64,000 bases of DNA from an uncultured Bacilli bacterium (GCA_947626595.1 CANQST010000003.1:8396-72395); one strand, 5' to 3'; numbered from the stretch's first letter, positions 17,501 through 61,333 are shown. A program made the numbers and translations. Notes: generated from the sequence alone by a model not told the origin.

Positions 17501-20500
17501 AATGAATTAATGTTAGTATTAGACTTTGATAATGTATCTAAAGAAAATGTTAAAGGAAAAGAGTTTAGTATCTTCTTTGGTAATATAGAAAATAATAAAG
17601 CTACTAATGAAACACATCCTGATGTTGCATTTAAGACATTATTAAAACGTCTTGAAAGTAATGAGGACATAGTCTTAAAACAAAACTATGATGCTAGTTT
17701 AATATCTGAAGACACTAAGTATTATGTTGATAATTATAGTGGAAAACTAGATGGAAATGGCTTTACTATTAAAAACCTAGAAAAACCATTATTTAATAAA
17801 TTAACTAATGCTAATATTAAGAATTTAATTTTAGAAAATGTTGTTCTAGATAGTAATGGTAGAGGTGCTTTAAGTAATGATGCATCTTCCACAACTGTGG
17901 AAAATGTTATAGTAAATCGTGTTACTAAGAAAAGTGCAAGTAATGGTCAAAATGGTGGTTTAATTGGAAATGTTAATACTCGTAGTACTATCAATTCTTG
18001 TGCCGTAAAAAATATTGACTTTAATATTGGCAATGCTCAACAAAATGGTGGTTTAGTTGGATATGCTGAAAACTCTACTATCAGTAATAGTTACGCTATT
18101 GGTAAAGTAAATGGTGGCTGGAACTTTAATGCTGGTTTTGTAGGTAATACTGCTAATACAACATTTACTAATAACTATTCTAAAGTAAGCGTTACTGGTT
18201 ATACTATCTGTGACTTTGCTTGTAGTTATCTAGGTCAATCAAGTTACCACAATAATATATCTTTAGGAGGTACTAATCGAGGTTTTGTAAATAAGTATAG
18301 TTCTATTTCTAATAACTACTACTTAGTTACTGATGGAAGTATAAGTACTAATAAAGACATTACTAATATCACAGCTGAACAAGTTAATACTAATCTATTT
18401 AAACAAGCTAAGTTTGATAGTAGTATATGGCGTTTAGATAACGTTACTTATGAAAATACTCCATTATTACAAACTGAAAAAATAACTTCTATGGATGAAA
18501 GTATTAATGGTTATGATAGTACTAAGACAATTCTTTATAATAACTTAATGAAATTAATGCCATATTACAGTAATGAAAAAATAATTACTATGGCTAAAAA
18601 CATCAAAGATAATTACTTAAATACTAAAGAAATTATGCATATCTTACCAGTTGATAAAAATGGTAATATTGTAACATACTTAACAAATGATAATGTTAAG
18701 AGAATTAGTAAAATAAAAGTAGTCTATAAAACTAAAGAAAAACAAGAATTTAATGTAACATATGATAATACATATGACTTTGTCGCAACTTATCGTATAG
18801 TTGATTTAAAAATTGATTATAACTACAAAAATTACATAATTGATAGTAATTCTCAAGTTGTAAATAACTTAACTAATTACTTGAAAAAATTAAATTATAC
18901 TGATAATTTAGATATCTTAACTTCTACTGGAGATAGTAGAATATATAGAGATTTCTATAATGAGACAACTGTTAATGAATTAAAAGAGTTTGTTCTATCT
19001 TATCTATCTAATAGTAATTATAATAATATAACTAATAATGATATTATAACTACTCATATTGAAAAAGAAGTAAAAGAAGATAAGAAAATAGAAAAGATAC
19101 TATATATGTATAACTACTTTAGACGTTTCTATGACTTAGATATTGATGGTATTAAGTTATATCAATTTATGCTATTTAATATGGATGGTTTTGATAGTAG
19201 TTTAACTCCAAAAAAGATTGCTAACTTATTCTTAAGTGATGGAACTAACTTCAATACTAATGAAACAAATACTAGATATCAAAAAATCTTTAGCAACTAT
19301 ACTAATCTAAATACTATATCTAAATTCTTAGAGTATATGGTTACTGAATTTAGTGATTTAGATATGGATAAATGGACTGCTTCACAATTTAAAGGATATC
19401 TAGCTGAAGTACCAGTAGATGGACATCCTGAAGTATTATATACTTTATGGGATCACTTTAGTAATGAAGATGCTACATACCATAACCCTTATCAAATATA
19501 TAACTATGTATTACCAATCTTAACTTTACCAAAAGATGCTGCCTACATTATATCTAGTCCTGTTCAATTTATAATAGGTGCCCAAAGGACTTATATAGTT
19601 GATCCAAGCAATGAAGAGGAACAAGCATTATTAAGAAGAAAAGTTAAGAGTTATACTGATAGAATGAGTAATTATTACAATACAGCTTATGGTTTCTTAC
19701 AAGATGCTAAAGTATTTAATGATATTCATACTTACCAATTAGATAAGCGTTATACTAAAGGCGCTAATGGAGAAACTATTTTCCATAACCCATATGTAAC
19801 AGAAGAACCATTCCACAAGAACTTAAATGAAGTAATGAACCAATGGGCATACAATGATTATAATGCCGCAACCGCTAATGGAACTCAGATAATTTGGCGT
19901 GTTGAAGGATTAATGGATGGTAACTTAATCCCTGAACTTGGTAATGTTCAAGAATATACATATCAGACTTGGTCACATGAGTCAGCACATAACGTTGATG
20001 CTAGATTATTCTTACGTAATAATGGTAGAAGATATGATGCTGGTGGAGAAGATTATGCTGATGGTAACTTAACTCAAAGTTTTGGTCAAAATGACATTGT
20101 TATGAACTTATCAGTTAATTATGATGCCGGTAGTAGAGTTGGTGCTAACCTTACATATGATAGAATTGCTTCACCTAGCAAAATTCATGATTTCTATCAA
20201 AAAGTTTTTGATACTATATATATAATGGATTATATAGAAGGAAAAGCTTTCTTAGAATTAAATGATAAAGAAAAATCAGGTGTAGCTGTTCAAGTTATGT
20301 ATCCAAATGAGAATTTAGAAGGAGAAGACAAAACCCATCTTAAATACAAATACACAGTATATCAGCATATAGACGAAGATAAGTATAAAGCTATGAAACT
20401 AAATTCTATTGAGGATCTATACAAAGAAAAATTAGTAATATTCCCTAATGTTTATTACTCAACCTATACTGATAATAGATACGGTGGCGAAGGTATAAAT

Positions 20501-28190: not shown

Positions 28191-30197
28191 ATGAATAGCA
28201 GAAAGCAAAAACTAATTATTATAGGTGCTTTATGTCTAGTTGTAACTTTATTGTCTATAGGTTATGCTGTTTTGTCAGCTAATTTAAGGATTAATGGTAC
28301 TGCTAAAGTATCAGGTGAAAAATGGAGCGTTGAGTTTGTAGAAAAGCAGGCAAAAACTATTCCAAAGGGAAAAGCTACTTGTGATATAGGTACAATTCAA
28401 AATACTTCAGTAACAAACCTATTAGCTAAAGTGAAAGTCCCAGGAGACAGTTGTACATTTACTATACCAGTAGAAAATACTGGAACTTTAGATGCCAGTT
28501 TAGTCGATGTTACTAATAAGGGTTTAGCTTTGTCATATAGTGGTGACCAAGGGGATATAGATATAATAAGTAGTTATATAACTTATGATGTAAGATATGG
28601 TAACACACAAATAAATAATGAAACTAATTTTGATAGTATAGATATACTAGAGCCAGGAGAAAGAGAGACTATAATTTTAAAAGTTGAGTTTAAAGAAGAA
28701 GCAACCCAGATACCAAATGAGGTAGTAACAATAACAGGATTAGATAGAACATTTAATTTTGAAAATAAGGTGGGTTCAAGTAGTACTAATCCAACACCAA
28801 ATACAACTCCAGTTTATCATGATGCCAGTGGAGCTAATCAACCAGTGTTAAATGGAGACATGATACCTGTAGTTTATGACGAAACAAGAAAAGAATGGGT
28901 AAAACAGGATTTAGATAAAAGTTATGACTATTCACAACAAGTATGGGCAAATGCTGTAACTGTAGTTGAAGATGGAACACAAACAAGAAGTTATTATAAG
29001 AAAGCCAAAGCCGGAACTGTTATATCAATGAGTGATATAAATACAATGTGGGTATGGATACCAAGATATTCATATACAATAAAGAGTGAAGATGGTGGAG
29101 AAAACTATTTTGGTAAAGCAAGTTCTGATAATGAAAGCCCAACTAAAGCATTACCAGGAGAAATAGATGTTAAGTTTATTTCAACAAGTCAAAATGACAG
29201 TGATGGTTCAGCAAAATATACAGAAAGTCAACCAAGCAACTGGAGAACGAATGATGCCTTTACTTTTGGAGACAAAATATTATCAGGTATATGGGTAGCT
29301 AAGTTTGAAACTACAGGTAGTTTATCTGAAGACCAACAGGCTTGTATTGATTTGAATTGTGATATAAGTAAAATAACGATAAAGCCAAATGTTTCTTCAG
29401 TAAGAAATCAAAGGATAAGCAGTTTCTTCTATATGGCAAGAAGTATGCAGAAAGAAAATAATCCATATGGTTTTAATAGTGAAAGCGGAGACTTGCATAT
29501 GTCAAAAAATAATGAATGGGGAGCAGTTGCATATTTAAGTCAAAGCAAATATGGTAAGTATGGTAATGGAGATTATAGTGGAGCAAATAAAGAAGTTTAT
29601 ATGAATAATAGTAGTGACTATATAACTGGAAACAGTAGTGGTACACCTGATGCTACTGAAATTAAGGGCGTTCTTCATGAATATAATGATATGAATAGCT
29701 TTTCAGGTGTTGGTGCAAGTACTACTGGAACAATATATGGAATATATGATATGAGTGGAGGATCAACTGAATATGTAATGGGAGGATTTGAGTATGATGC
29801 TCAAGGAAGTAATGAACATGCTGGACAAATATCTGTAGCTTCTTCGGGATTTAAAGGTTTAAGTGCTACTATACCACCTGCTGAAACTGGAACAATAAGT
29901 ATGCCAGAAAAGAAATATTACAATGTCTATAAAACAGCCACACCAACTTCTAGCATATGGTCTACAGCAAAGCCTGAACTTGCATGTAATTCAAACATTT
30001 GCTATGGACATGCTTTGTCGGAAACAGCTGAATGGTATGGAGACTACGCTTTGTTTGGTATACGATCATATCCATGGTTTAGACGTGGAGGAACGTACAA
30101 TAGTAGTCCAGTTGGTGGCTTGTTTCTAGCACATCCATATAGTGGAAATTATAATGAAACAATTTCAACTCGTTTAGTTCTAACACCTAACAATTAA
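28191..30197 (+). CDS. paralog B: signal-anchored secreted protein, TasA/camelysin-like N-terminal domain and FGE-sulfatase (SUMF1-like) C-terminal domain
   Basis: N-terminus LSANLRINGTAKVSGEKW...PGDSCTFTIPVENTGTLDASLVDV (cf. SipW-cognate/TasA leaders). C-terminus has NNEWGAVAYLSQSKYG (cf. FGE LPTEAEWEYAARGG), GIYDMSGGSTEYVMG (cf. GLYDMSGNVWEW) and a terminal RLVL. Start placed at the ATG at 28191 after the GGTAGGTGA SD. Confidence 0.85.
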   Translation: MNSRKQKLIIIGALCLVVTLLSIGYAVLSANLRINGTAKVSGEKWSVEFVEKQAKTIPKGKATCDIGTIQNTSVTNLLAKVKVPGDSCTFTIPVENTGTLDASLVDVTNKGLALSYSGDQGDIDIISSYITYDVRYGNTQINNETNFDSIDILEPGERETIILKVEFKEEATQIPNEVVTITGLDRTFNFENKVGSSSTNPTPNTTPVYHDASGANQPVLNGDMIPVVYDETRKEWVKQDLDKSYDYSQQVWANAVTVVEDGTQTRSYYKKAKAGTVISMSDINTMWVWIPRYSYTIKSEDGGENYFGKASSDNESPTKALPGEIDVKFISTSQNDSDGSAKYTESQPSNWRTNDAFTFGDKILSGIWVAKFETTGSLSEDQQACIDLNCDISKITIKPNVSSVRNQRISSFFYMARSMQKENNPYGFNSESGDLHMSKNNEWGAVAYLSQSKYGKYGNGDYSGANKEVYMNNSSDYITGNSSGTPDATEIKGVLHEYNDMNSFSGVGASTTGTIYGIYDMSGGSTEYVMGGFEYDAQGSNEHAGQISVASSGFKGLSATIPPAETGTISMPEKKYYNVYKTATPTSSIWSTAKPELACNSNICYGHALSETAEWYGDYALFGIRSYPWFRRGGTYNSSPVGGLFLAHPYSGNYNETISTRLVLTPNN

Positions 30198-35229: not shown

Positions 35230-36507
35230 ATGGAACGTAAAATAGAAACTTTTTTACAAAAGTGGCAGAAAGATATTATCAGAAAGCCCTTAATTATTTA
35301 CGGTGCTAAACAAATTGGTAAGACTTTTACCGTCTTAGACTATGGTAAAAAAGAATATAAAAATGTTGTTTACTTTAATACCGAAAATAATAAACAATTA
35401 AGTGATCTTTTTTCTAAAGAAAAATCAACCGACAAACTTATAGTTAATCTATCCTTAATCGCTGGAGAAACAATTTTAAAAGAAGATACCTTAATAATAT
35501 TTGATAATTTACTAGATAAAAAGATTGCTAAAGGATTAAAACTATTTGGTAGTGAACATAGTAAATATCATATTATTGCCATAACTTCTAAGAAAGAAAA
35601 GCTAAATGATTTTAAAGGTGAAGAACTACAATTTAAAAGTATGTATGAAATGGACTTTGAAGAATACCTATGGGCTCATGACGAAAAAAGTCTAGCAGAA
35701 TTAATAAAAGATGCTTTTAATAAACATAAAACTTGTCCTTTTCATAAAGTTGCTCTTGATATGTTTCAAGAATACCTATCAACAGGAGGTCTACCTGAAG
35801 TAGTCCTAGCGTCCATCAATGGTAAAAGTTTTTATGAAATAGATGCTATTAAACAAAAAATAATAGATGTTTATAAAAAAGAAATAGCTCTAAATAAAAT
35901 CTTAATTGATATTCCAAGAGGTATAGAAGTATTTAGTTCTTTACCAGAACAACTAAAAAAAGATAATAAAAAATTCCAATATGGCGTTATGGGTACCGGT
36001 AAAAGAGCTAAAGAATATGAAAGCACCATTAATTACTTAGTAAATAATCAATTAGTTTATCGAAGTTTCAAAATAAAAACTGTTAAATCACCTCTTAGTA
36101 GTTGCCGAGAAAAAGATAGTTTTAAATTATATTTACCTGACGATGGCTTATTATTTACTATGCTTCATTTGAATAATAAACAGCTATTAATAGATGAAAA
36201 AATAAAACAAACTTTATATGAAAATCATATCGCTAAAACTTTAGTAGAAAGTGAATATTCTCTATATTACTACCAATCTGATGGAAAAGCTGAAGTAAAT
36301 TTTGTTTTACAAAATAGAATGGGTCAAATCATACCTATAGAGCTTGCTACTAAATCTATGTCTAAAGCTAAAGCTTTATCTGTTTTTATGAAAAAATTTA
36401 CTGTTAAACAAGCTTATCGTGTTACTGAGAATAATTTCTCTACTAAAAAAGATGTTAGATATATCCCAATATATGCAATATTTTGCTTAAATGAAACTAA
36501 ACTATAG
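35230..36507 (+). CDS. AAA+ ATPase of the DUF4143 / AAA_14 family
   Basis: Walker A IIYGAKQIGKTF. 425 aa, characteristic of this stand-alone ATP-binding family. Inserted between eno and gpmI. Confidence 0.75.
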   Translation: MERKIETFLQKWQKDIIRKPLIIYGAKQIGKTFTVLDYGKKEYKNVVYFNTENNKQLSDLFSKEKSTDKLIVNLSLIAGETILKEDTLIIFDNLLDKKIAKGLKLFGSEHSKYHIIAITSKKEKLNDFKGEELQFKSMYEMDFEEYLWAHDEKSLAELIKDAFNKHKTCPFHKVALDMFQEYLSTGGLPEVVLASINGKSFYEIDAIKQKIIDVYKKEIALNKILIDIPRGIEVFSSLPEQLKKDNKKFQYGVMGTGKRAKEYESTINYLVNNQLVYRSFKIKTVKSPLSSCREKDSFKLYLPDDGLLFTMLHLNNKQLLIDEKIKQTLYENHIAKTLVESEYSLYYYQSDGKAEVNFVLQNRMGQIIPIELATKSMSKAKALSVFMKKFTVKQAYRVTENNFSTKKDVRYIPIYAIFCLNETKL

Positions 36508-50049: not shown

Positions 50050-50177
50050 ATAAACTCCTTTCTTTTTACTTGTAAAGAACTGACTTAAAAATTATACTAC
50101 ATTTTTTTAATTTTGTCTAGATTGACTAATAATCATTGTTATGGTATGATAACTTCATTCTTATGGGGTGTTTAGAT

Positions 50178-51755
50178 ATGGTTAAATATAATGAAGATAT
50201 TTCTAAAAATACTTTAGAAGTTTTATATAAAGCTTCAAGTATCTATGATATTTTAAAAGAACATGATGTTAAAGTAGGAATAAGTACCACTAGTCATAGT
50301 AGTATAATAAGTGATTTAATTAATAATTATGATAAGAAAAGTCTAAGTATCTTATTATCTTTTTTCTTTGTAAATTGTACTACTAAGAAAATGTTTGATG
50401 ACTACAATATTACTTTAGATAATTTCCTAGACTTAATATATAATGAAAATAATGAAAAATTATTTACTGAAGAAGAATTAAAAAGATTAGTTTTCCATAA
50501 CAAAAAAGAAAATATTAATAATGATATAGAAGTAATGACTAAAAGAATTTTAAATGACTTTGGTTACTTATCAACACCAGGATTATTAGTCTTATTATAT
50601 GATACTAGTTATAGTGCATCACGTCTAATTAATACTTTCTTACCATGTGTTTTAGAATATTCTTCTCCTTTTATTGATAGCAAAGCCTTTTATGAAATAT
50701 TATCAAGAACTGCCATGGAAATAGAAGAAGAAAAATCTAAAGATAGCTCTTTTATAAGTAAGAAAGTATCTAAATTAAAAGAAAAAAACTCTAATAGTAT
50801 CTTTTCTCTTCTAAATATTATTCCTAAAAAAGAACAAGAAAATATTATTAAAAAATATGGTACCTATCTAACTGATATTTCTTATCAAAGTAATCCCGCT
50901 GTAGGAAGAAAAAAAGAATTAGAAAAAGCTAAAGTAACTCTACTTACCGAAGATAAATCTTTAATACTAGTTGGACCAGGAGGAGTAGGCAAGACAGCTA
51001 TTGTAGAAGGACTTGCTTATGATATAGAAAAAGGTAATGTTCCAGATAGTCTTAAAAATAAAAAAATCTTATCTATTAATACAGCTAGTTTAGTTAGTGG
51101 TTGTAAATACGTAGGTAGTTTTGAAGAAGTAGTAAAAAACTTATTTCAAGAAATTGAAAAAGAAGAAAATATCATTTTATTTATTGACGAACTACATACT
51201 GTCTTCGGACTAGGAGCTGGTTCTAACTCTACTTTAGATTTTGCTAATATTTTAAAGCCCTATCTAGGTCGTGGAAAAATTAAAATGATAGGGGCAACTA
51301 CTTCTTCAGAATATGACCGTATTATCGCAACAGACTCAGCCTTTAAAAGAAGATTTGAAAGATTAGATATTAAAGAACCAACTAATGATACTTTACTAGA
51401 AATAGCAGAAGAAATAATTAAGAAATTAGAAGAAGTATATAAAATAAAATTTTTAAATAATTATGAAGAAAAGATTTTTATCTTAAAAGAAATAATAAAG
51501 ACAACTGACCAAGCCAAAAGAATTTATGACGATAAAAGTAGTAATCCTGATTTAGTTATTACTATAATTGAAAAAGCTTTTGCTTATGCTAAGTATAATG
51601 ACAATACCTATGTAACTAAGGAAGATATATCTTGTGCCATAATGGATTGTGATAGAATATATGAAAGTGTAAGAGAAAGTACTAAAGATTTAATAAGAAA
51701 AAAGTATAATGAGAAAAAACATGTTAAAGTAATAAACTTTCCACAGAAAGACTAA
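50178..51755 (+). CDS. Clp/Hsp100-like AAA+ protein with a single (D1-type) ATPase domain
   Basis: VGRKKELEKAKVTLLTEDKSLILVGPGGVGKTAIVEGLA...ILFIDELHTVFGLGAG matches the ClpA/B D1 block. GGGTG SD before the ATG at 50178. Confidence 0.7.
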   Translation: MVKYNEDISKNTLEVLYKASSIYDILKEHDVKVGISTTSHSSIISDLINNYDKKSLSILLSFFFVNCTTKKMFDDYNITLDNFLDLIYNENNEKLFTEEELKRLVFHNKKENINNDIEVMTKRILNDFGYLSTPGLLVLLYDTSYSASRLINTFLPCVLEYSSPFIDSKAFYEILSRTAMEIEEEKSKDSSFISKKVSKLKEKNSNSIFSLLNIIPKKEQENIIKKYGTYLTDISYQSNPAVGRKKELEKAKVTLLTEDKSLILVGPGGVGKTAIVEGLAYDIEKGNVPDSLKNKKILSINTASLVSGCKYVGSFEEVVKNLFQEIEKEENIILFIDELHTVFGLGAGSNSTLDFANILKPYLGRGKIKMIGATTSSEYDRIIATDSAFKRRFERLDIKEPTNDTLLEIAEEIIKKLEEVYKIKFLNNYEEKIFILKEIIKTTDQAKRIYDDKSSNPDLVITIIEKAFAYAKYNDNTYVTKEDISCAIMDCDRIYESVRESTKDLIRKKYNEKKHVKVINFPQKD

Positions 51756-51798
51756 ACTATTTGAAAGAGTTGTGACTAAACTATTTGAAAGAGTTTAG
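51751..51798. repeat. tandem 21-bp direct repeat (actaaactatttgaaagagtt x2, period 24) spanning the stop codon of the Clp-like gene
   Basis: Read directly from the sequence. Confidence 0.8.
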
Positions 51799-51817
51799 TT
51801 TTTTTGATATACTAATA

Positions 51818-52870
51818 ATGGTGATGACAGTGGGACTATTTAGTAAAATAAAAGACATGTTCAAAAAAGACGATAAAGAAGAAATTAAAGAAGAACAAAG
51901 TATAATAGAAGAACCTATAAAAATAAATGAAGAACAACCTAAAAAAGATGTAAAACGTTATGAAAAAGGATTAACTAAATCTAGAGAAGGTTTTGTATCT
52001 AAACTAGTTAGCTTAACTAATCGTTATAGTAAAGTAAATGAAGAATTCTTTGACGAGCTAGAAGAAATACTAATCATGGCTGATATTGGTGTTAATACTG
52101 TAATGAGTTTTATCGATAGATTAAAAGATAGAGTAAAAAAAGAAAATATAACAGACCCAACTCTTTTAAGAGAAATAATAGTTGACGAATTATTTATTAT
52201 CTATGTAAATGACGAAGTTTTAAGTAGTAAAATTAATTATAATGAAAATGGCCCTACCGTTATTCTTTTTGTAGGAGTTAATGGTGTAGGTAAAACAACA
52301 ACTATTGGTAAACTTGCATCTAAAATAAAAAAAGAAGGGAAAAAAGTGTTATTAATAGGCGCTGATACCTTTAGAGCTGGAGCCTATCTTCAATTAAAAG
52401 AATGGGCTGAAAGAGTAGATGTTTCCTTTTATGGTAAAGAAGAAGGAACAGACCCCGCAAGTGTTGTCTATGATGGACTATCTAAAGCTAAAAATGAAAA
52501 CTATGATGTTGTCTTAATAGATACCGCTGGAAGATTACAAAATAAAGTTAATCTAATGAAAGAACTAGAAAAAATTAATAAAGTAATAGATACTTTTATT
52601 GATGGAGGAGCTAGTGAAACATTACTAATAGTTGATGCTACAACAGGTCAAAATGGAATTAGCCAAGCCAAAGCCTTCAAAGAAATAACTAATATTACAG
52701 GAATAGTCTTAACTAAATTAGATGGAACAGCTAAAGGAGGTATCGTTCTAGCAATCAAAGAAGAAGTTGGTCTCCCAGTAAAATATATAGGACTAGGAGA
52801 AACTGTAGACGACTTAGCTGTTTTTGATATAGAAAAATATATCTATGGACTATTTAAGGATATGATGTAA
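51818..52870 (+). CDS. ftsY: signal recognition particle receptor FtsY (start uncertain: 51785, 51818 or GTG 51830)
   Basis: MGLFSKIK N-terminus. NG domain motifs GVNGVGKTTTIGKLA, DTAGR, TKLDG. Confidence 0.9.
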   Translation: MVMTVGLFSKIKDMFKKDDKEEIKEEQSIIEEPIKINEEQPKKDVKRYEKGLTKSREGFVSKLVSLTNRYSKVNEEFFDELEEILIMADIGVNTVMSFIDRLKDRVKKENITDPTLLREIIVDELFIIYVNDEVLSSKINYNENGPTVILFVGVNGVGKTTTIGKLASKIKKEGKKVLLIGADTFRAGAYLQLKEWAERVDVSFYGKEEGTDPASVVYDGLSKAKNENYDVVLIDTAGRLQNKVNLMKELEKINKVIDTFIDGGASETLLIVDATTGQNGISQAKAFKEITNITGIVLTKLDGTAKGGIVLAIKEEVGLPVKYIGLGETVDDLAVFDIEKYIYGLFKDMM

Positions 52871-53113
52871 ATGAAAAAGTTTAGTTTATATTTACAATTT
52901 GTCTTATTACTAGTAGTATGTACTTTATTAATAATGTTTCTCTTTGTAAGTAAAAAATACTTTAATATTCTAGAATTATTCTTAGGTATAGGACTAATTA
53001 CTATGGCTTATAATACTGAAAAATATTATCATAATAAAAAACGTAGTATAGCCTACTTAATATTTGGTGTTTTCCTTCTAGTAATGGATTTATTAATGAT
53101 TATTGGAGATTGA
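52871..53113 (+). CDS. small two-TM membrane protein
   Basis: 80-aa ORF. Start overlaps the ftsY stop (taaATG). Confidence 0.4.
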   Translation: MKKFSLYLQFVLLLVVCTLLIMFLFVSKKYFNILELFLGIGLITMAYNTEKYYHNKKRSIAYLIFGVFLLVMDLLMIIGD

Positions 53114-53114
53114 T

Positions 53115-53408
53115 ATGGAAGAGTTATTATATTATAATGAGTTATATGATTTATATAAAAACTTATTAACTGATAAACAAAGAAAATATTTTGAAGATTA
53201 TTACTTTAATAATCTAAGTTATAGTGAAATGGCTTTAAACTTTAAAGTAAGTAGAAATGCTGTTTGTAAACAACTTCATAGTACTTTAGAAAAATTAAAA
53301 GAATATGAAGAAAAATTAAAATTACTAGAAAAAAGAGATAAAATACTATTAATAAAAGATAAAATAAAAGATAAAGATATATCTAGAGAACTAGAAAATA
53401 TTTTTTAA
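53115..53408 (+). CDS. ylxM: YlxM/UPF0122 SRP-associated putative DNA-binding protein
   Basis: YNELYDLYKNLLTDKQRKYFEDYYFNNLSYSEMA matches the YlxM signature (LLT.KQ...ELYY.dDlSL.EIA). Position between ftsY and ffh. Confidence 0.85.
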   Translation: MEELLYYNELYDLYKNLLTDKQRKYFEDYYFNNLSYSEMALNFKVSRNAVCKQLHSTLEKLKEYEEKLKLLEKRDKILLIKDKIKDKDISRELENIF

Positions 53409-53417
53409 GGAGAGCTT

Positions 53418-53996
53418 ATGAATAATAAAATATTAATTCTTTTAATCACAACTATAGGAATAGCTTTAATTGTATTTGGATGGTTTGCTATTAGTGATAA
53501 TTTAGCTAATAGTGGAAGTGATACTGTAGAAGAAACAGAAGAAAATAAAGAAGATAAAGAAAATATTACTTCTCCTACAGGAGAAGAATATGGTAGAGAA
53601 GAGATAAAAGAATATAAGTTTACTGACTTAGAAAGTGTAATTAATAACTTTTTAAAAAATGATAATACTTTTCCTTATATAGAAGAATGTAAATTTATTT
53701 CTGAAAATAATACTACATCAACATTTACTAAACTTGATAACAGTTCTATCGAAAAAGTAATTAATAAATTAAAAAGTGCTAAGACCTATGAAAAAAATAT
53801 TTTAGGAACATATAACTGTCCAGAAATTCACTTTTTTATTGGTAAAGTAGAAAATAATGTCAAAATAAATGAAGATTTTAGTCTAAATTGTGGCTCTACT
53901 GATATGGTTGTTAGATATGGTGATACAGGCTTTGCTTTTAATTTTGAAGTTAATGACGAAGAAGAACTTACTAATTTTTTTAAAACGTTAAAGTAA
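53418..53996 (+). CDS. hypothetical signal-anchored extracellular protein
   Basis: 192-aa ORF with an N-terminal TM, an acidic linker and two Cys. AAGGAG SD. Confidence 0.5.
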   Translation: MNNKILILLITTIGIALIVFGWFAISDNLANSGSDTVEETEENKEDKENITSPTGEEYGREEIKEYKFTDLESVINNFLKNDNTFPYIEECKFISENNTTSTFTKLDNSSIEKVINKLKSAKTYEKNILGTYNCPEIHFFIGKVENNVKINEDFSLNCGSTDMVVRYGDTGFAFNFEVNDEEELTNFFKTLK

Positions 53997-54060
53997 AAGT
54001 ATTGTCAAAAAAAAGAAAAAAAGGTATAATTTTTACTATAGTAGGATAAGAGGGGATATT

Positions 54061-56277
54061 ATGTTTGATAAGATAATTTATATTAGTGATCACTCAGCAA
54101 ATATTAAATTAAAAGATAATGCTGAAGTTACAATGAACCTAATGAATATGCATTTGGTATTTGAAGATGATGTAAAAAAAGTCTTAGGAGAAGTAGACGA
54201 CTTAGACAAAGATATTGTTAAAGCTAGGTTTCTAGGAGAAATAGTTAATGGTAAATTAATTGGTGGTACAATTAGAAAACCCTCTTTAGATGCCAAGATA
54301 AGAGTTATTACTCAAGAAGAAATACCTATGATTACTGGAAGTGATACTAATGGCTTTATGAAATTAGGTGTTAGTCCTTTCTATAATGATTTTCCTGTTT
54401 ACTTAGATGTTAATAATTTCTTTAGTAATCACTTTGCTATATTTGGTAACTCTGGTAGTGGTAAAAGTTGTGGTATATCAAGACTTTTTCAAAATATGTT
54501 TAGTGATGCTAGACTTAATCCATATAAAGCTAATATCTTATTATTTGACTCATCAGGTGAGTATTACAATGCCTTTAGAAATTTAAATGAACTAAATAGT
54601 AATTATCATTATCGTTTTATTTCAACTAATGAAGTAGATGGTATTGGAGAAAAATTACGTTTACCTATATATTTGCTTAATGCCACTGATTTAGCTTTAC
54701 TATTACAAGCAACTAATCACTCTCAATTACCAATTATTGAAAGAATGTTAAAACTTGCTTTAGTATTTTCTCAAGAAGATATGGATGCTAACGCATATAA
54801 AAATCATTTGATTGCTAAAGCTATAATGACTATTCTTTATACTAATGAAACAGCACCTAATAAAAGAAATGAAGTATTTTCTATTCTTGCTAGCTGTTCA
54901 ACACCAGAATTTAACCTAGAAGCTGTAGTTCAAGGAATTGGTTATGAAAGAAAATTTAGAGAATGTTTCCTAATAGATAATTCTGGTAATTTCTCTGAAA
55001 GTGTTTTATTAACAGAATATGTATCTTCATTTATAAAAGAAGAGTTTGATAATTATGAACCACATGGTGGAGTATATTACAATCTTGATACCTTAGAAAA
55101 AGCCCTAAACTTTACTTTAATTAGTGAAGGTTGGCTAAGAAATGCTAATACCTATGGTGATGCTGTTACAATTAGAGTTAGATTACACTCTCTTATCGTT
55201 GGCGATAATGCTAAGTTCTTTGATGTTCCTGAATATGTATCACTTGAAAGTTATTTATCGTCTCTTTTGATTAATAATGGTGATAAATATCAAATAGTTA
55301 ACTTTAACTTAGACGATATTGATGACGACTTTGCTAAAGTTATTACTAAAATTTATTCAAGACTTGTCTTTGAATTTGCTAAAGCTTTAAAGAATAGAGC
55401 TAGTATTCCTTTCCATATCGTTGTTGAAGAAGCTCATAGATATATCCAAAATGATACTGATAGATTTTTAATTGGATATAATATATTTGAAAGAATTGCT
55501 AAAGAGGGACGTAAATATGGAGTTATTCTAGGACTTATTTCTCAAAGACCAGTTGAATTATCTGATACCGTTATTTCTCAATGTTCTAATTTCTTAATAT
55601 TTAAAATGAACCATCCAGTTGATGTTGAATATATTAGAAAAATGGTACCTAATATAAGTGACGAAATTGTTGAGAAGCAAAAAACCTTACAGTCTGGTAC
55701 TTGTCTAGGATTTGGTATGGCTTTTAGAATTCCTTTGATTGTTAAAATGGAAATGCCTAATCCATCCCCATTAAGTAGTAACTGTGATGTTGTTAATATA
55801 TGGAATGGTGAGGGATATGTTCAAAGTGTTAACGCTGTTGTACCAGTTGATGCTCCAGCACCTACTGCTAATGTACCTATGCCAACAGAACCTGTCCAAG
55901 AACAACCATCAATTGTATCAACTATTAAAACAGAAACACCTCTTAGTAATGTTGATTTAGGAATAGAAAATAATACTGAAGGGACTACTTCGGCACCTGA
56001 AACTTCAGAAACTGCTCCTGTTCAAATTCCAAGTGCAATTCCAACAGTAAGTACTGCAGTAAATGAAGAACGAGAGCCAAGTACTATAACTTTAGAAGTA
56101 AATGGAGTAAAAACTGAAGTCCCTCCAACTCCTGAAGTTAATCAAGAAGTAAATACAGTTAGTCCTAATCAAGTACCAGTAGCAAGTGAAGCACCTGCTG
56201 CAAATAATGAACCATCACCAACTATCGACTTGACACTTGATGATGACGACGATGACCTAGGACCTGATTTTTCTTAA
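54061..56277 (+). CDS. HerA/FtsK-superfamily (DUF87-like) P-loop ATPase with a disordered Pro/Thr-rich C-terminal region and an acidic DDDDDDLGPDFS tail
   Basis: Walker A FGNSGSGKS. HIVVEEAHRY and EGRKYGVILGLISQRPVELSDTVISQC blocks typical of HerA-like ATPases. N-terminal beta-barrel-like region. Confidence 0.7.
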   Translation: MFDKIIYISDHSANIKLKDNAEVTMNLMNMHLVFEDDVKKVLGEVDDLDKDIVKARFLGEIVNGKLIGGTIRKPSLDAKIRVITQEEIPMITGSDTNGFMKLGVSPFYNDFPVYLDVNNFFSNHFAIFGNSGSGKSCGISRLFQNMFSDARLNPYKANILLFDSSGEYYNAFRNLNELNSNYHYRFISTNEVDGIGEKLRLPIYLLNATDLALLLQATNHSQLPIIERMLKLALVFSQEDMDANAYKNHLIAKAIMTILYTNETAPNKRNEVFSILASCSTPEFNLEAVVQGIGYERKFRECFLIDNSGNFSESVLLTEYVSSFIKEEFDNYEPHGGVYYNLDTLEKALNFTLISEGWLRNANTYGDAVTIRVRLHSLIVGDNAKFFDVPEYVSLESYLSSLLINNGDKYQIVNFNLDDIDDDFAKVITKIYSRLVFEFAKALKNRASIPFHIVVEEAHRYIQNDTDRFLIGYNIFERIAKEGRKYGVILGLISQRPVELSDTVISQCSNFLIFKMNHPVDVEYIRKMVPNISDEIVEKQKTLQSGTCLGFGMAFRIPLIVKMEMPNPSPLSSNCDVVNIWNGEGYVQSVNAVVPVDAPAPTANVPMPTEPVQEQPSIVSTIKTETPLSNVDLGIENNTEGTTSAPETSETAPVQIPSAIPTVSTAVNEEREPSTITLEVNGVKTEVPPTPEVNQEVNTVSPNQVPVASEAPAANNEPSPTIDLTLDDDDDDLGPDFS

Positions 56278-56332
56278 GTAGTGGTTTGCACTACTTTTTT
56301 CTTTTTGGTATAATGTTATTGGTGATGAGTAA

Positions 56333-57640
56333 ATGTTTGAAAGTTTAGGCGATAGATTACAAAACGCTTTGCACAAGATTAAAGGTTATGGTAAGATTAC
56401 TGAAGAAAATATTTCCGATATGATGCGTGAAATTAGACTTGCTTTACTAGAAGCTGATGTTAACTATCAAGTAGTAAAAGAATTTACCAATAATGTTAAA
56501 GAAAAAGCTTTAGGAGAAGAAGTAGCGACTAGTATTAATCCAGGAGATTTATTTGTAAAAATAGTAAAAGACGAACTAACTGATTTACTTGGTGGAGAAA
56601 GTGCTGAGTTAAATATAAAAGGTAATCCAGCTATTTTGATGTTAGTAGGTCTCCAAGGTTCAGGTAAAACAACTACTATAGGAAAATTAGCTAATTTCTT
56701 AAGAAAAAAACATAGTAAAAAACCTCTATTAGTAGCTTGTGATGTCTATAGACCAGCTGCTATTGACCAATTAAAACAATTAGGTAAGCAACTAAATATT
56801 GAAGTTTATGAAGAAGGAAAGAAAAATCCTGTTGATATTGCGAAAAATGCTATTAGTTATGCTAAAGATAATAACTATGATTATGTTTTAATAGATACTG
56901 CTGGACGTCTTCATATTGACGAAGAGTTAATGGAAGAACTTGATAATATTAAAAATGAAGTCAATCCCGAAGAAATTCTATTAGTAATAGATGCTATGAT
57001 GGGACAAGATGCTATCAATGTTATTACTGGTTTTAATGACAAACTACCTTTAACAGGAGTTATCCTAACTAAATTAGATGGTGATACTAGAGGTGGTGTT
57101 GCCTTATCAGTTAGACATTTAACTAATGTACCAATTAAATTTATCGGTGTATCAGAAAAACTAGATGGTCTAGATACCTTTGATCCAGAAAGAATGGCTG
57201 GTAGAATTCTAGGTATGGGAGATATAGTTTCCTTAGTTGAAAAAGCAACAGAAGCTATAGACGAAAAAGAAGCAGAAAAAACTGCTAAAAGAATGCAACA
57301 AGGCAAATTTGATTTAGAAGATTTCTTATCAACATTAAAACAAATGAAAAAACTAGGTCCCTTAGAAAATTTAATTAAAATGTTACCTGGTGCTAAGAAA
57401 ATGGGATTAAATAATATTAAGATAGATCCAAAGCAAATGGCTCATATTGAAGCTATCGTCTTATCAATGACCCCAAGTGAAAGAAGAAATCCTGATATAA
57501 TAAAAGCTAGTAGAAAAACACGTATTGCTAGTGGTAGTGGTAGAAGTGTTCAAGAAGTAAACCGCCTATTACAGCAATTTGATCAAATGAAAAAAATGAT
57601 GAAACAAGTAACAAATGGTAATATGAAATTACCTTTTTAG
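56333..57640 (+). CDS. ffh: signal recognition particle protein Ffh
   Basis: LVGLQGSGKTTT, DTAGR, TKLDGD and a Met-rich M domain. Confidence 0.97.
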   Translation: MFESLGDRLQNALHKIKGYGKITEENISDMMREIRLALLEADVNYQVVKEFTNNVKEKALGEEVATSINPGDLFVKIVKDELTDLLGGESAELNIKGNPAILMLVGLQGSGKTTTIGKLANFLRKKHSKKPLLVACDVYRPAAIDQLKQLGKQLNIEVYEEGKKNPVDIAKNAISYAKDNNYDYVLIDTAGRLHIDEELMEELDNIKNEVNPEEILLVIDAMMGQDAINVITGFNDKLPLTGVILTKLDGDTRGGVALSVRHLTNVPIKFIGVSEKLDGLDTFDPERMAGRILGMGDIVSLVEKATEAIDEKEAEKTAKRMQQGKFDLEDFLSTLKQMKKLGPLENLIKMLPGAKKMGLNNIKIDPKQMAHIEAIVLSMTPSERRNPDIIKASRKTRIASGSGRSVQEVNRLLQQFDQMKKMMKQVTNGNMKLPF

Positions 57641-58291: not shown

Positions 58292-58600
58292 ATGTTTAAT
58301 AATATGACTAACTTTGAAAGTTCTGTTACTGGAAATAATAATATCGTTGATAATGATATGAACGTTGATGTTAATATGAATATGAATTATAACGGTAATA
58401 TGAATACACCAATTAACGAAGGAATTCAACAAAGATGTGTTCATAGAACTATCGTCCATGAAGTTCCCCATGTTTGTCCAATTCATACTAAAATAATTAA
58501 CCACCATGTTTATAAACATACTTATAGACCTGAATATACTTGTTCTGAAGAAAATACTGTAAGTAATGTTCAATGTGGCTCTTGTTGTCAATTTAAATAA
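58292..58600 (+). CDS. Asn/His/Cys-rich small protein with CotD-like (spore coat protein D) features
   Basis: Strong AGAGGAGG SD. VHRTIVHEVPHVCPIHTKIINHHVYKHTYRPEY resembles CotD His/Pro-rich repeats. C-terminal CGSCC. Confidence 0.4.
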   Translation: MFNNMTNFESSVTGNNNIVDNDMNVDVNMNMNYNGNMNTPINEGIQQRCVHRTIVHEVPHVCPIHTKIINHHVYKHTYRPEYTCSEENTVSNVQCGSCCQFK

Positions 58601-58961: not shown

Positions 58962-59315
58962 TTATTTTTGTATATAACTTTTATTTATCTTAATAAAGTT
59001 AATAATCTTATTTAATTCTTTATCAGTTAATTCTTCTTCTTTATTCATATAACCATTTTTTACTAATAATTTCTTTAGTACTTCTTTTTCTTTTAAATTA
59101 TCTTCAATAACTTTAAGCTTTTTTTCATTACCCAATAAGTAATCAATAGATACTTGAAAAAAATTAGCTATCTTAATTAACATTTCATAATCCGGTGTAG
59201 TTCTATTTATTTCCCAACCACTTATAGTTTGCATTGTAACACCTAACTCAGCTGCTAACTCTTTTTGATACATATTCTTCTTTTCTCTTAGTTCTTTTAA
59301 TCTATTTCCAAACAT
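58962..59315 (-). CDS. XRE/SinR-like HTH regulator with a C-terminal extension; divergent from paralog C
   Basis: QKELAAELGVTMQTISGWE HTH_3. The C-terminal about 50 aa are conserved with the regulator at 60947. Confidence 0.8.
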   Translation of the reverse strand: MFGNRLKELREKKNMYQKELAAELGVTMQTISGWEINRTTPDYEMLIKIANFFQVSIDYLLGNEKKLKVIEDNLKEKEVLKKLLVKNGYMNKEEELTDKELNKIINFIKINKSYIQK

Positions 59316-59451
59316 AATAGACCACCATCCTTTTACTCGCTATATTACAACAATTTAATAAATGCAACAATTCATTATAAATAAATTACATTTTTTTATT
59401 TACTAACTCTACAATATGTTGTATACTTAAATAGTAAAGATGGTGACATTA

Positions 59452-60900
59452 ATGAAAAAATATGTAATTGGTTTTATTATTGGAATATTATTAACAGGAA
59501 CTATAACTTACGCAGTAGGTTCAGTAATAGAAAGTAAAAGTGTTTTATATAATAGAACTATAAGTGGAGGAAGTTCAGATAATGTACAAGGATCAATAGA
59601 CGAGTTATATAAAATGAGTGGAGTAAGTACAACTCCATATAAGGAAGAAATTTTAAACGGAGCGGACCCAGTATTGGGTGATGGAATGATACCAGTAACT
59701 TTAGATAAAAAAGGAAAAGTAAAGTATGCAAATCTAAATACACAGTGGTATTGTTATGAAGAAAAGAAATGGGCCAATGCAGTAATACTTAAACAAAGTC
59801 CAAGCAAAAGTTATAAAACAGGAGATATAATCTCAGAAGACGATATTGAGAGTTATTTTGTATGGGTTCCAAGATTTAAATATAAAGTATGGAACACATC
59901 AAGTGCTGATGGTTACCAGCAAAATTTAGCTAATACGCAAAATTCAGCAAATTCTATTTGGCATATTACTGGTTCAGCACGATTAATAGATGTAGAATTT
60001 GAAGATAAGAGTGCAACGGCTTCAAGTGGTACTTACTTGACCCATCCTGCATTTACTACCTTTGGAGTAAGTGGTTTGTGGTTTGCTAAGTTTGAAACGA
60101 GTGGAACCACAGGCGCAATAACAGTAAAACCAAATGTTACTTCTTTAAGAGGTACAACAGTTGGTGATTTTTGGCATGCCTTCTATAATTATAGAAATGT
60201 TAATGGTGAACATAATCCTAATTTAGATCCACATATGATAAAAAATACTGAATGGGGTGCAGCTGCATACTTATCTCATTCAGCATATGGAATAGGAACT
60301 GAAATAAATATAAATAATAATCAAAATTATTTGACAGGTTATTCAGCTGCGGCAAATACAGACCAAAGTTCTTATACTGGAACATATGGAACTAAAACAG
60401 TTACCGATAATGATGGACCAGCAGTGACAAAACCCTATAATACACCAATTGGCTATTTAGCATCAACAACAGGAAATATCACAGGAATATATGATATGTC
60501 AGGTGGAGCACATGAGTATGTTGCTGGTTACTTAGATCCTTATGGTGTTACTAGTAGTGGTGGCGTTGCAAGTGGTTTGAAAGTTACTGATTTAGCTAAA
60601 GAACAATACTTTGATAAATATTCAGGAGCTACAACTGGGTCGTCTTACAGTAAAAGAATTTTAGGAGATGCAACAGGCGAACTCGGCCCTTTCTATTACT
60701 ACATGGAGAAGAATGGCTCTAATTATTCTCACAATGGTTGGTACGCTGATGGTTCGGACTTTGTAGAGCCCAGGTACTCGTGGTTCGGCCGAGGCGGTCC
60801 ATACGATGATGGCGTCTTGGCAGGTCAGTTTCACTTCCATAGGTTTACCGGAGAGGCCTTTGGTTATCTTGGTTCACGTTTGGTTTTAGCAGTCAAGTAA
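59452..60900 (+). CDS. paralog C: signal-anchored FGE-sulfatase-like domain protein
   Basis: MKKYVIGFIIGILLTG TM anchor. NTEWGAAAYLSHSAYG, GIYDMSGGAHEYVAGY and a terminal GSRLVLAVK. GGTGA SD before the ATG at 59452. Confidence 0.85.
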   Translation: MKKYVIGFIIGILLTGTITYAVGSVIESKSVLYNRTISGGSSDNVQGSIDELYKMSGVSTTPYKEEILNGADPVLGDGMIPVTLDKKGKVKYANLNTQWYCYEEKKWANAVILKQSPSKSYKTGDIISEDDIESYFVWVPRFKYKVWNTSSADGYQQNLANTQNSANSIWHITGSARLIDVEFEDKSATASSGTYLTHPAFTTFGVSGLWFAKFETSGTTGAITVKPNVTSLRGTTVGDFWHAFYNYRNVNGEHNPNLDPHMIKNTEWGAAAYLSHSAYGIGTEININNNQNYLTGYSAAANTDQSSYTGTYGTKTVTDNDGPAVTKPYNTPIGYLASTTGNITGIYDMSGGAHEYVAGYLDPYGVTSSGGVASGLKVTDLAKEQYFDKYSGATTGSSYSKRILGDATGELGPFYYYMEKNGSNYSHNGWYADGSDFVEPRYSWFGRGGPYDDGVLAGQFHFHRFTGEAFGYLGSRLVLAVK

Positions 60901-60946
60901 TAATAGTATTAAATAAAGCCTAGAGGACTTGCTTGTTCTCTAGGCT

Positions 60947-61333
60947 TTATCTATTTTTCATAATATATTTTCTATTATTCTTAATAAAATCCATTATGCT
61001 TTTTAACTCCTCATTTGATAAATTTTCTTCTTTGCTCATATAACCATTTTCTACTAATGTATCTTTTAACACTTGCTTTATATTTAATTGCTTTTCATTC
61101 TTATTTGATTTAGTCTCTCTACCAAGTAGAAAGTCAGTAGAAACATTTAAAAAGTCAGCAATCCTAACAAGCGTTTCAAAATCAGGCCTTGTTATATTTT
61201 GACACCATCTATTAACTGCTTGTTGAGTTAAATTTAAATGTTTTGCTAATTCGATTTGTTTAATCTCACCACTATCAAGTGCAAATTTTAATCGTTCACT
61301 AAACATTACAATCACCTCTAACTTGCTTAACAT
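60947..61333 (-). CDS. XRE/SinR-like HTH regulator; divergent from paralog D
   Basis: QIELAKHLNLTQQAVNRWC HTH. C-terminal domain homologous to 58962-59315. Confidence 0.8.
   Translation of the reverse strand: MLSKLEVIVMFSERLKFALDSGEIKQIELAKHLNLTQQAVNRWCQNITRPDFETLVRIADFLNVSTDFLLGRETKSNKNEKQLNIKQVLKDTLVENGYMSKEENLSNEELKSIMDFIKNNRKYIMKNR

Follow-up and report, generated by a model that had tools for sequence, protein, structure and literature searches.

Research on bacterial HerA ATPases is, to our knowledge, at present nearly confined to two-gene anti-phage systems, in which they form the sensor or motor half. HerA and FtsK together make up one superfamily of ring DNA pumps. The HerA-family members characterised so far act on DNA (PMC11514289, PMC12977600), and in the solved HerA rings C-terminal braces tie neighbouring subunits, while the N-terminal barrel is the face against which Sir2 packs (PMC11514289). 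Here we describe a HerA-family gene, herA, in a 64-kb stretch of DNA from an uncultured Bacilli bacterium (GCA_947626595.1 CANQST010000003.1:8396-72395; hereafter the window, all coordinates being whole-window positions unless a locus is named). It lies between ylxM and ffh, in the segment from ftsY to ffh, all genes of which are on the plus strand. The gene is an old, vertically inherited core gene and neither mobile nor a recent insertion, and its product belongs to a conserved, partner-less HerA family of its own, outside any known housekeeping family. On balance we hold it probable that, in this RF39-type lineage of gut Bacilli, the protein is a solitary housekeeping motor, i.e. a DNA-translocating ring equipped with tether tails.

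Family membership and closest described systems

The features of herA and of its product, with positions in amino acids (aa), were as follows; models were made with AlphaFold2 (AF2) and their local confidence is given as pLDDT (predicted local distance difference test).

54061-56277, plus strand: herA, encoding a 738-aa HerA-family ATPase (PF01935, PADLOC HerA, AF2/Foldseek)
54061-54330, plus strand: N-terminal beta-barrel, HAS-barrel-like, aa 1 to about 90, with seven strands within aa 2-82 of the AF2 model
54445-54468, plus strand: Walker A motif GNSGSGKS, aa 129-136, read from the sequence and invariant in alignments A1-A3
54682-55275, plus strand: helical-bundle insertion, aa about 208-405 (helices H208-H403 in the AF2 model)
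55414-55443, plus strand: Walker B region HIVVEEAHRY, aa 452-461, with E456, E457, A458, H459, R460 and Y461 invariant
55504-55551, plus strand: EGRKYGVILGLISQRP block, aa 482-497, invariant in alignment A2, a motif typical of HerA/FtsK
55756-55815, plus strand: core end PNPSPLSSNCDVVNIWNG, aa 566-583, conserved family-wide, with pLDDT <50 in the monomer model
55816-56274, plus strand: disordered Pro/Val/Thr/Glu-rich tail of 153 aa (aa 586-738), delimited by composition
56215-56274, plus strand: C-terminal short motif SPTIDLTLDDDDDDLGPDFS, read from the sequence

The ATPase belongs to the HerA family and its catalytic motifs are intact. It matches Pfam PF01935 (5.7e-20) and the PADLOC HerA profile PDLC04102 (1.5e-108), and it combines a RecA-like P-loop core, Walker A and B motifs and the EGRKxG...QRP block with the barrel and the helical-bundle insertion of the family. 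The Walker A motif and the EGRKYGVILGLISQRP block, both named in a preliminary description made from the sequence, were located in the protein, and the HerA-like assignment made there was borne out. Against the HerA, DUF87, VirB4 and FtsK profiles, only HerA (PF01935) was matched: a VirB4-like profile (NF045971) scored 21 bits against a cut-off of 325, and PF01580, the FtsK motor, gave no match at E 0.01 or better. No hydrophobic or transmembrane segments were found in the protein, and no type IV secretion system (T4SS) genes adjoin herA. Among NCBIfam models the anti-phage HerAs ranked first and archaeal HerA next, all far below their equivalog cut-offs. The best match was HerA_antiphage_2, at 174 bits against 850; of the anti-phage HerA equivalogs, NF042944 gave 174 bits (cut-off 850) and NF042943 gave 144 (cut-off 800), and helicase_HerA (NF040819) reached 92 bits against 970.

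The AF2 model of the core (pLDDT 80.5; predicted template modelling score, pTM, 0.78) consists of the N-terminal beta-barrel, a RecA-like domain and the helical bundle. When this model was compared with the PDB by Foldseek, all top matches were HerA proteins, at 16-24% identity and with template modelling (TM) scores of 0.6-0.7 over full-length alignments. Within the bundle, a motif HSQLPIIE has H220, S221, Q222, P224, I225 and E227 invariant (alignment A2). The end of the core carries the consensus stretch PNPxPxSxNCDVxxxW, and aa 566-592 are unresolved in the AF2 core model; it probably forms a C-terminal brace onto the neighbouring subunit.

Four groups of described systems were compared with the window HerA. 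A profile search of PDB sequences placed the DUF4297-HerA systems (9c1m, 8xau/8xav, 8ziq-8zit) first, with 9c1m at 2.2e-59, followed by other DUF4297-HerA, Sir2-HerA and archaeal HerA chains. Foldseek aligned DUF4297-HerA over its full length (E ~1e-26), and the two have in common the barrel, the RecA core, the helical bundle, the PNPxP C-terminal end and the EGRKYG...SQRP block, EGRKYGVILGLISQRP aligning with EGRKYG...SQRPSE of 9c1m HerA. The window HerA is, however, only 20-24% identical to these proteins; no gene for a DUF4297/Cap4-like nuclease lies near herA, whose neighbors are ylxM, p192 and ffh; and herA is fixed in the core genome and not in a defence island, with a long disordered tail added in the window lineage.

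The Sir2-HerA systems (Nezha; 8yhx/8yho from S. aureus, 8sub/8j4u from E. coli, and 8wld) gave the top Foldseek match, 8yhx (E 2.4e-27, TM 0.70). They differ in the barrel, the region that faces Sir2: that of the window HerA is near-invariant in relatives and alignable from residue 1 within the partner-less family only, whereas it does not align with the barrel of Sir2-linked HerAs, which is longer by about 50 residues. They differ also in gene context, as no SIR2 gene adjoins a HerA at least 39% identical to that of the window in about 150 loci, whereas relatives at 28-32% identity, and only these, have a SIR2_2 gene directly upstream (7/7 loci examined).

Archaeal HerA of the HerA-NurA end-resection helicase (4d2i, 9x1m) has the same fold (Foldseek E ~1e-20) and a housekeeping chromosomal role, as we propose for the window HerA. 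Identity is only 15-18%, however, the helicase_HerA score falls far short, and no NurA, Mre11 or Rad50 gene adjoins herA in the window family. With FtsK/SpoIIIE the protein shares the QRP motif and the combination of a motor domain with a long disordered linker, and in one related locus ftsK stands upstream of herA, but the window HerA has neither a PF01580 match nor a membrane or gamma domain, and its linker is C-terminal to the motor.

Conservation of the locus and features specific to the lineage

The genes and signals surrounding herA were as follows (SRP, signal recognition particle; ORF, open reading frame).

51785-52870, plus strand: ftsY, the SRP receptor (PF00448, 6.9e-78; PF02881), conserved upstream context outside the HerA unit
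52871-53113, plus strand: 80-aa small membrane protein between ftsY and ylxM, of patchy conservation
53115-53408, plus strand: ylxM, UPF0122 helix-turn-helix protein (PF04297, 1.1e-21; NF045758, 4e-23)
53418-53996, plus strand: p192, ORF for a signal-anchored 192-aa protein
54002-54030, plus strand: herA promoter-like site TTGTCA-17 nt-TATAAT, with 11/12 consensus positions, between p192 and herA
56276-56296, plus strand: terminator-like hairpin and T-run directly at the herA stop codon, from a terminator scan
56333-57640, plus strand: ffh, SRP54 (PF00448, PF02978, PF02881), conserved downstream neighbor of herA

By exact look-up, no record was found for the window HerA sequence, and its context was taken from close homologs, of which there are thousands; a same-species record with a 100% identical p192 sequence was another source of context. 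The contigs of close homologs carry ftsY, the small membrane protein, ylxM, herA and ffh in this order, without p192. A scan of the lineage, with one genome per species, gave 74 relatives, all uncultured gut Bacilli, of which 60 species loci had enough flank for a synteny count and 69 species were used for tail and terminator counts. In 58 of the 60 loci ylxM was directly upstream of herA, mostly with a spacer of 70-140 bp, and ffh followed where the flank allows. Median identities to the window were 88% for Ffh, 87% for RNase J, 77% for the HerA core, 77% for RpoZ, 73% for FtsY and 57% for YlxM; with a median above that of FtsY, HerA is thus conserved like a housekeeping gene. The FtsY product is 62-84% identical in relatives and keeps its position, Ffh is 80-94% identical, and the ylxM start, an ATG at 53115 giving a 97-aa product, is the same as called in relatives. 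The 80-aa membrane protein has no Pfam or NCBIfam match, and tblastn found it at 32-75% identity in a subset of relatives only (neighbor cluster c18 in the metagenome loci).

Members of the lineage include 'Mycoplasma sp. CAG:877' and Ca. Faecimonas gallistercoris; the GTDB genus CAG-877 is placed in order RF39, family CAG-611 (PMC8035907). The arrangement of ylxM-herA, zero to three genes and then ffh persists in distant lineages, where HerA is 52-61% identical and tailless and Ffh is 75-84% identical. In an Onthousia-like subclade (L043, L056, L061, L065, L067, L069, L070, L072 and L082 in our numbering of loci) three extra genes lie between herA and ffh, i.e. one for an uncharacterised protein of about 410 aa, fmt (recognised by sequence) and one for a membrane protein of about 246 aa.

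Neither IMG/VR viral contigs nor plasmids contained a HerA relative above 33% and 31% identity, respectively. G+C content (GC) is 0.28-0.30 in the core-coding part of herA and 0.25-0.32 on either side, so that there is no compositional break at p192/herA; it climbs to 0.34-0.38 only in the stretch coding for the Pro/Thr/Ala-rich HerA tail, where the amino-acid content predicts such a rise. The window itself is core chromosome, with fusA, tuf, femAB, murD, eno, gpmI, a class II aminoacyl-tRNA synthetase gene and rnj. With its place kept in 58/60 loci, no GC break and no close viral or plasmid matches, herA lacks the marks of a mobile or island insertion, and a patchy distribution was found for p192 alone.

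We predict that herA is transcribed separately, from a promoter of its own to a terminator of its own. In 30/31 species inspected, an equivalent of the promoter-like site, TTGTAA/TTGTCA-N17-TATAAT, stands 30-60 nt upstream of herA, and behind it come a conserved leader and the ribosome-binding site AGAGGGGA. In 42/69 species loci, as compared with 3% of 1480 random windows, a hairpin with 8 or more matched pairs and a T-run stand at the herA stop codon; the stem sequences vary from species to species. ffh has a promoter-like site of its own at 56285-56314. As a separate observation, the leader between the herA -10 box and the ribosome-binding site (54031-54060; TATGATAGGG, TATAGTAGGATAAG, TATAGAATAGG) is kept in most species, with counterparts at equivalent positions in L001-L082, and could be a regulatory site or the transcript-start region.

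The position between ylxM and ffh, kept across the lineage, might be taken to link HerA to the secretory pathway, as an ATPase working with FtsY, YlxM, Ffh or membrane proteins in targeting or export; there are small membrane proteins nearby, and one distant locus has EssC-like and WXG-like genes beside herA. We regard this as very unlikely, given that the predicted promoter and terminator would isolate herA from the SRP genes, that herA belongs to unrelated operons in other clades of the family, that HerA is without a transmembrane segment and scores far below the VirB4-like cut-off, and that characterised family members act on DNA (PMC11514289, PMC12977600).

p192, the gene in front of herA, is a fast-evolving orphan, unrelated to HerA and a recent entrant to the ylxM-herA spacer, and it is not a partner of HerA. 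Its product has an N-terminal hydrophobic anchor, ILILLITTIGIALIVFGWFAI, read from the sequence, and its earlier designation as signal-anchored is thereby upheld. There were zero matches to it in Pfam, NCBIfam and PADLOC, and among 5.8e9 clustered proteins only two homolog clusters were found, i.e. those of its own species and of the L010 species (57-58% identity). Similarly, jackhmmer with p192 against every ORF of all loci returned only the L010 homolog and same-species copies. L011 and some 57 further species carry herA at the same position but lack p192, and the slot is elsewhere either an empty spacer or filled by unrelated genes. In L054 the same slot holds a gene for a 177-aa anchored protein, 26% identical to p192 (E 2e-4) and possibly a remote homolog. 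Since p192 starts 9 nt past ylxM, it belongs to the upstream unit and not to that of herA, and since it ends ahead of the conserved herA promoter, separate transcription is predicted.

The preliminary description had read p192 and herA as a two-gene insertion, in which a secreted or anchored protein and HerA, its sole partner, form a new defence or transport pair splitting the SRP operon. Both ORFs are present as named, on the plus strand between ylxM and ffh, adjacent, in the same direction and 64 bp apart. Neither stands there in Bacillus subtilis, in which we take ylxM and ffh to be contiguous, and relative to that order the ATPase does interrupt the pair. The insertion as stated is nevertheless refuted by the synteny of herA, by the rarity of p192 (in only 2 of about 60 species with herA here) and by the predicted herA promoter between the two genes; in the two species sharing p192, moreover, herA is 84% identical and p192 57%. 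As a functional pair the two are scarcely credible. It had been reasoned that the insertion would fall if relatives had the same two genes there and the ATPase clustered with a known housekeeping family. The ATPase gene is indeed present between ylxM and ffh in relatives, at HerA identities down to 52%, but p192 is missing there, and the ATPase joins no known housekeeping family.

The disordered tail of HerA (P 14%, V 13%, T 12%, E 10%) is real, although at 153 aa it is shorter than the 180 aa first given. In the lineage of the window it is always present and in frame, hypervariable and of low complexity, and total HerA length ranges over 605-942 aa in the 69 species. In most other clades of the family the protein stops a few residues past the core, without a tail, a distribution that marks the tail, as judged from the sequences, as an innovation specific to the window's lineage and not part of the core mechanism of the family. 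The last 10-20 residues come in subclade flavors, i.e. G[TI]PL[IV]x[IL]T, SPIPEINLxN and xDLTLDD-acidic-PDF[SA].

Disordered tethers ending in a short peptide are also found in SSB, with an acidic tip of the DDDIPF type, and in FtsZ, with a C-terminal linker and a conserved peptide. HerA resembles these proteins in build: an oligomerising globular core leads into a linker that is hypervariable and of low complexity, and a short conserved motif ends the chain. A likeness to the SSB tip had been proposed for the window HerA, and its end, DDDDDDLGPDFS as read from the sequence, is indeed acidic and aromatic. Such a tip, acidic with a Phe near the end, occurs however in only 19 of the 69 species, while P[LI]hxh and IP[ED]h were counted in 21 each, and the window HerA does not end in D-D-D-[IL]-P-F-COOH. 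Further differences from SSB and FtsZ are that the tip motif of HerA varies among subclades (PLVxITP, SPIPEINL, xDLTLDD) and that most of the wider HerA family is tailless. Readings of the motif as beta-clamp-binding, MutL-type or FtsZ-peptide were rejected, spacing and key residues being mismatched.

The partner-less HerA family and its probable role

When 1.84 billion representatives were searched exhaustively, 242 proteins came out below 1e-30. Identity among the full-length relatives falls gradually from 83% to about 35%, whereas at about 30-33% the alignment begins only near residue 100. Gene contexts were collected by exact look-ups and from 80 metagenome loci, with neighbors clustered and annotated; the representatives of the intermediate clades are all metagenome-derived. 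For full-length relatives at 39-92% identity the contexts are lineage-specific and stable within a lineage. The following arrangements were found, with HerA identity to the window:

aspS-gatCAB-herA-thiF, with mgsA and a Xer-like recombinase nearby (50-55%)
PP2C...herA-sepF-divIVA...ileS, in 10 loci whose HerAs are pairwise 57-88% identical (40-43%)
herA-sufC-sufBD-csd (39-46%)
ileS-x-herA, beside HIT, csd and ssb (39-42%)
yqeG-yqeH-herA (44-48%)
rmuC-herA (41%)
rpmH-rnpA-yidC-jag on the opposite strand, then herA-dnaA-dnaN-recF-gyrB (40%)
herA 12 nt past the end of a complete ftsK (41%)
a ParA/MinD-like ATPase gene, then herA, near cotE (35%)

Three single loci may be mentioned here. In L098 (2945-10965) the family HerA (40%) lies between rpmH and dnaA, the usual position of the replication origin. 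In L152 (4715-8764) a 757-aa complete FtsK, with alpha, motor (PF01580) and gamma domains by Pfam, is followed by a HerA 41% identical to that of the window, and the two genes are probably co-transcribed. In L163 (633-8979) a 678-aa family HerA is flanked by four genes of 82-120 aa, with an EssC-like 1527-aa protein with FtsK domains encoded nearby, in what may be a type VII secretion neighborhood.

No universal neighbor of the family emerged from the clustered neighbors of the metagenome loci, and no effector adjoins herA in the roughly 150 loci from many lineages. The window likewise gave no Sir2, NurA or DUF4297 match, either among its 38 other ORFs with PADLOC or among the ORFs scanned with Pfam, so that, for the 64-kb window and the neighboring loci, the earlier statement that these partners are missing was correct. 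In the databases, members of the family are named only 'DUF87 domain-containing protein' or 'ATP-binding protein', and our search of the literature on solitary HerA in RF39 or Firmicutes found nothing relevant and no paper describing the family.

Several neighbors in the family, namely ftsK, sepF-divIVA, dnaA, rmuC, ssb, mgsA-xer and the ParA-like gene, point to DNA and cell-cycle processes. Archaeal HerA was reportedly proposed by Iyer and colleagues in 2004 to be a septal chromosome-clearing translocase. One explanation along this line is that HerA replaces FtsK/SpoIIIE as the septal chromosome-clearing translocase of reduced genomes, with its tail tethered to the divisome. It would accord with the common superfamily of HerA and FtsK and with the clade in which herA is directly upstream of sepF-divIVA, and the order of motor, long disordered linker and terminal motif could be seen as FtsK reversed. 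We nevertheless consider a replacement improbable: complete FtsK and HerA coexist in L152, which weakens it, and most clades of the family have no tail to tether. The FtsK search was made with the E. coli FtsK motor as query; its single strong match was confirmed by Pfam, and its negatives carry little weight.

A further explanation is that herA encodes a chromosomally fixed anti-phage HerA, which would sense or translocate invading DNA and then activate an effector encoded elsewhere or unrecognised, or act alone. The best family matches (HerA_antiphage_2 and the PADLOC profile) are defence HerAs, the closest solved structures come from DUF4297-HerA and Sir2-HerA systems, and the next relatives outside the family have SIR2 directly upstream. 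Defence genes are, as a rule, patchy in distribution and borne on islands. Here, by contrast, the gene has a fixed place inside housekeeping operons and conservation equal to that of ftsY, about 150 loci and the window are without an effector or partner, and viral and plasmid collections hold no close relatives. Moreover, the NCBIfam score is far under the equivalog cut-off, and the N-terminal barrel, which is the Sir2-facing part (PMC11514289), does not align with that of Sir2-linked HerAs. Defence is therefore doubtful in our view, although it is the least improbable of the rival explanations.

The reading of HerA as a solitary housekeeping motor would run as follows. An ancestor of the lineage would have set herA between ylxM and ffh as a self-contained transcription unit. 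The protein, to judge by its family, would assemble into a hexameric ring and use ATP to translocate double-stranded DNA, and its service may be to the upkeep of the chromosome (segregation, resolution or repair) and not to defence against phages. The six tails of each ring could then be flexible tethers that recruit a partner or fold back to regulate the ring. A more specific form of this reading, put forward only tentatively, is that solitary HerA is kept across RF39 and related fast-evolving gut Bacilli as a housekeeping chromosome motor, and that in the lineage of the window its tails couple the ring to replication, segregation or division. It would be a counterpart of archaeal HerA without NurA, Sir2 or DUF4297, and akin by descent to the defence HerAs, as either a domesticated immune ATPase or their chromosomal ancestor.

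Several points weigh against HerA as a housekeeping motor. The nearest characterised relatives are all anti-phage HerAs. An equal number of family contexts are translation, SRP or Fe-S operons and neighborhoods vary, so that the contextual support for a DNA or cell-cycle role is modest. The evidence for the absence of a partner spans gene neighborhoods and the 64-kb window only. A full-length AF2 model (14-sequence alignment A1), made for tail docking, reached a pLDDT of 35.8 and was uninformative. Lastly, the promoter scan found 65 promoter-like sites where 53 were expected; both the promoter and the terminator are sequence predictions, and such matches are frequent because the genome is AT-rich.

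What is new here is a solitary core-genome HerA with a disordered tail specific to one lineage, within a large, well-conserved HerA family that is without an adjoining effector and fixed in housekeeping operons of abundant uncultured gut Bacilli. If the protein is a housekeeping motor, it would either be a case of an immune ATPase turned to housekeeping or show where on the chromosome the defence HerAs came from, and would add an unrecognised component to chromosome biology in relatives of Mycoplasma. The case also calls for caution in automated defence annotation, as the PADLOC HerA profile matches strongly, yet the gene bears no genomic hallmark of defence.

Other features of the window and of related loci

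Outside the segment from ftsY to ffh, the following features were recorded in the window.

11513-21049, plus strand: 3178-aa ORF without a Pfam match at E 1e-5, in the core region upstream of fusA and tuf
28173-30197, plus strand: 674-aa ORF without a Pfam match at E 1e-5
35230-36507, plus strand: AAA_14/DUF4143 ATPase between enolase and gpmI
50136-51755, plus strand: 539-aa AAA+ protein upstream of ftsY, variable among relatives
58292-58600, plus strand: 102-aa His/Cys/Asn-rich protein with a weak CotD-like match (PF11122, E 0.0057)
58962-59315 and 60947-61333, minus strand: paralogous XRE-type helix-turn-helix (HTH) genes matching RmrA-, capH- and HTH-type PADLOC profiles

Among the 38 ORFs scanned there was one match to the PADLOC candidate system PDC-S01 (5.8e-112), probably from the AAA_14/DUF4143 ORF at 35230-36507. 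The 539-aa AAA+ protein is 33-63% identical in relatives where present and absent in some, with a PMT_2 glycosyltransferase instead in L007. Most relatives also encode the 102-aa His/Cys/Asn-rich protein downstream of ffh (50-86% identity). The pair of XRE-type genes flanks a 486-aa ORF (59440-60900) with a raised GC of 0.35-0.40, and the stretch 58962-61333 may be a small island. In relatives, the ffh-rpoZ interval is a mobile-DNA hot spot (L001, 11691-16337; L004-L006, 11163-15363). L001 has genes for a T4SS coupling protein and TrbL of a conjugative element downstream of ffh, while L004-L006 have a serine recombinase gene with Fic and Peptidase_MA genes in the ffh-rpoZ stretch.

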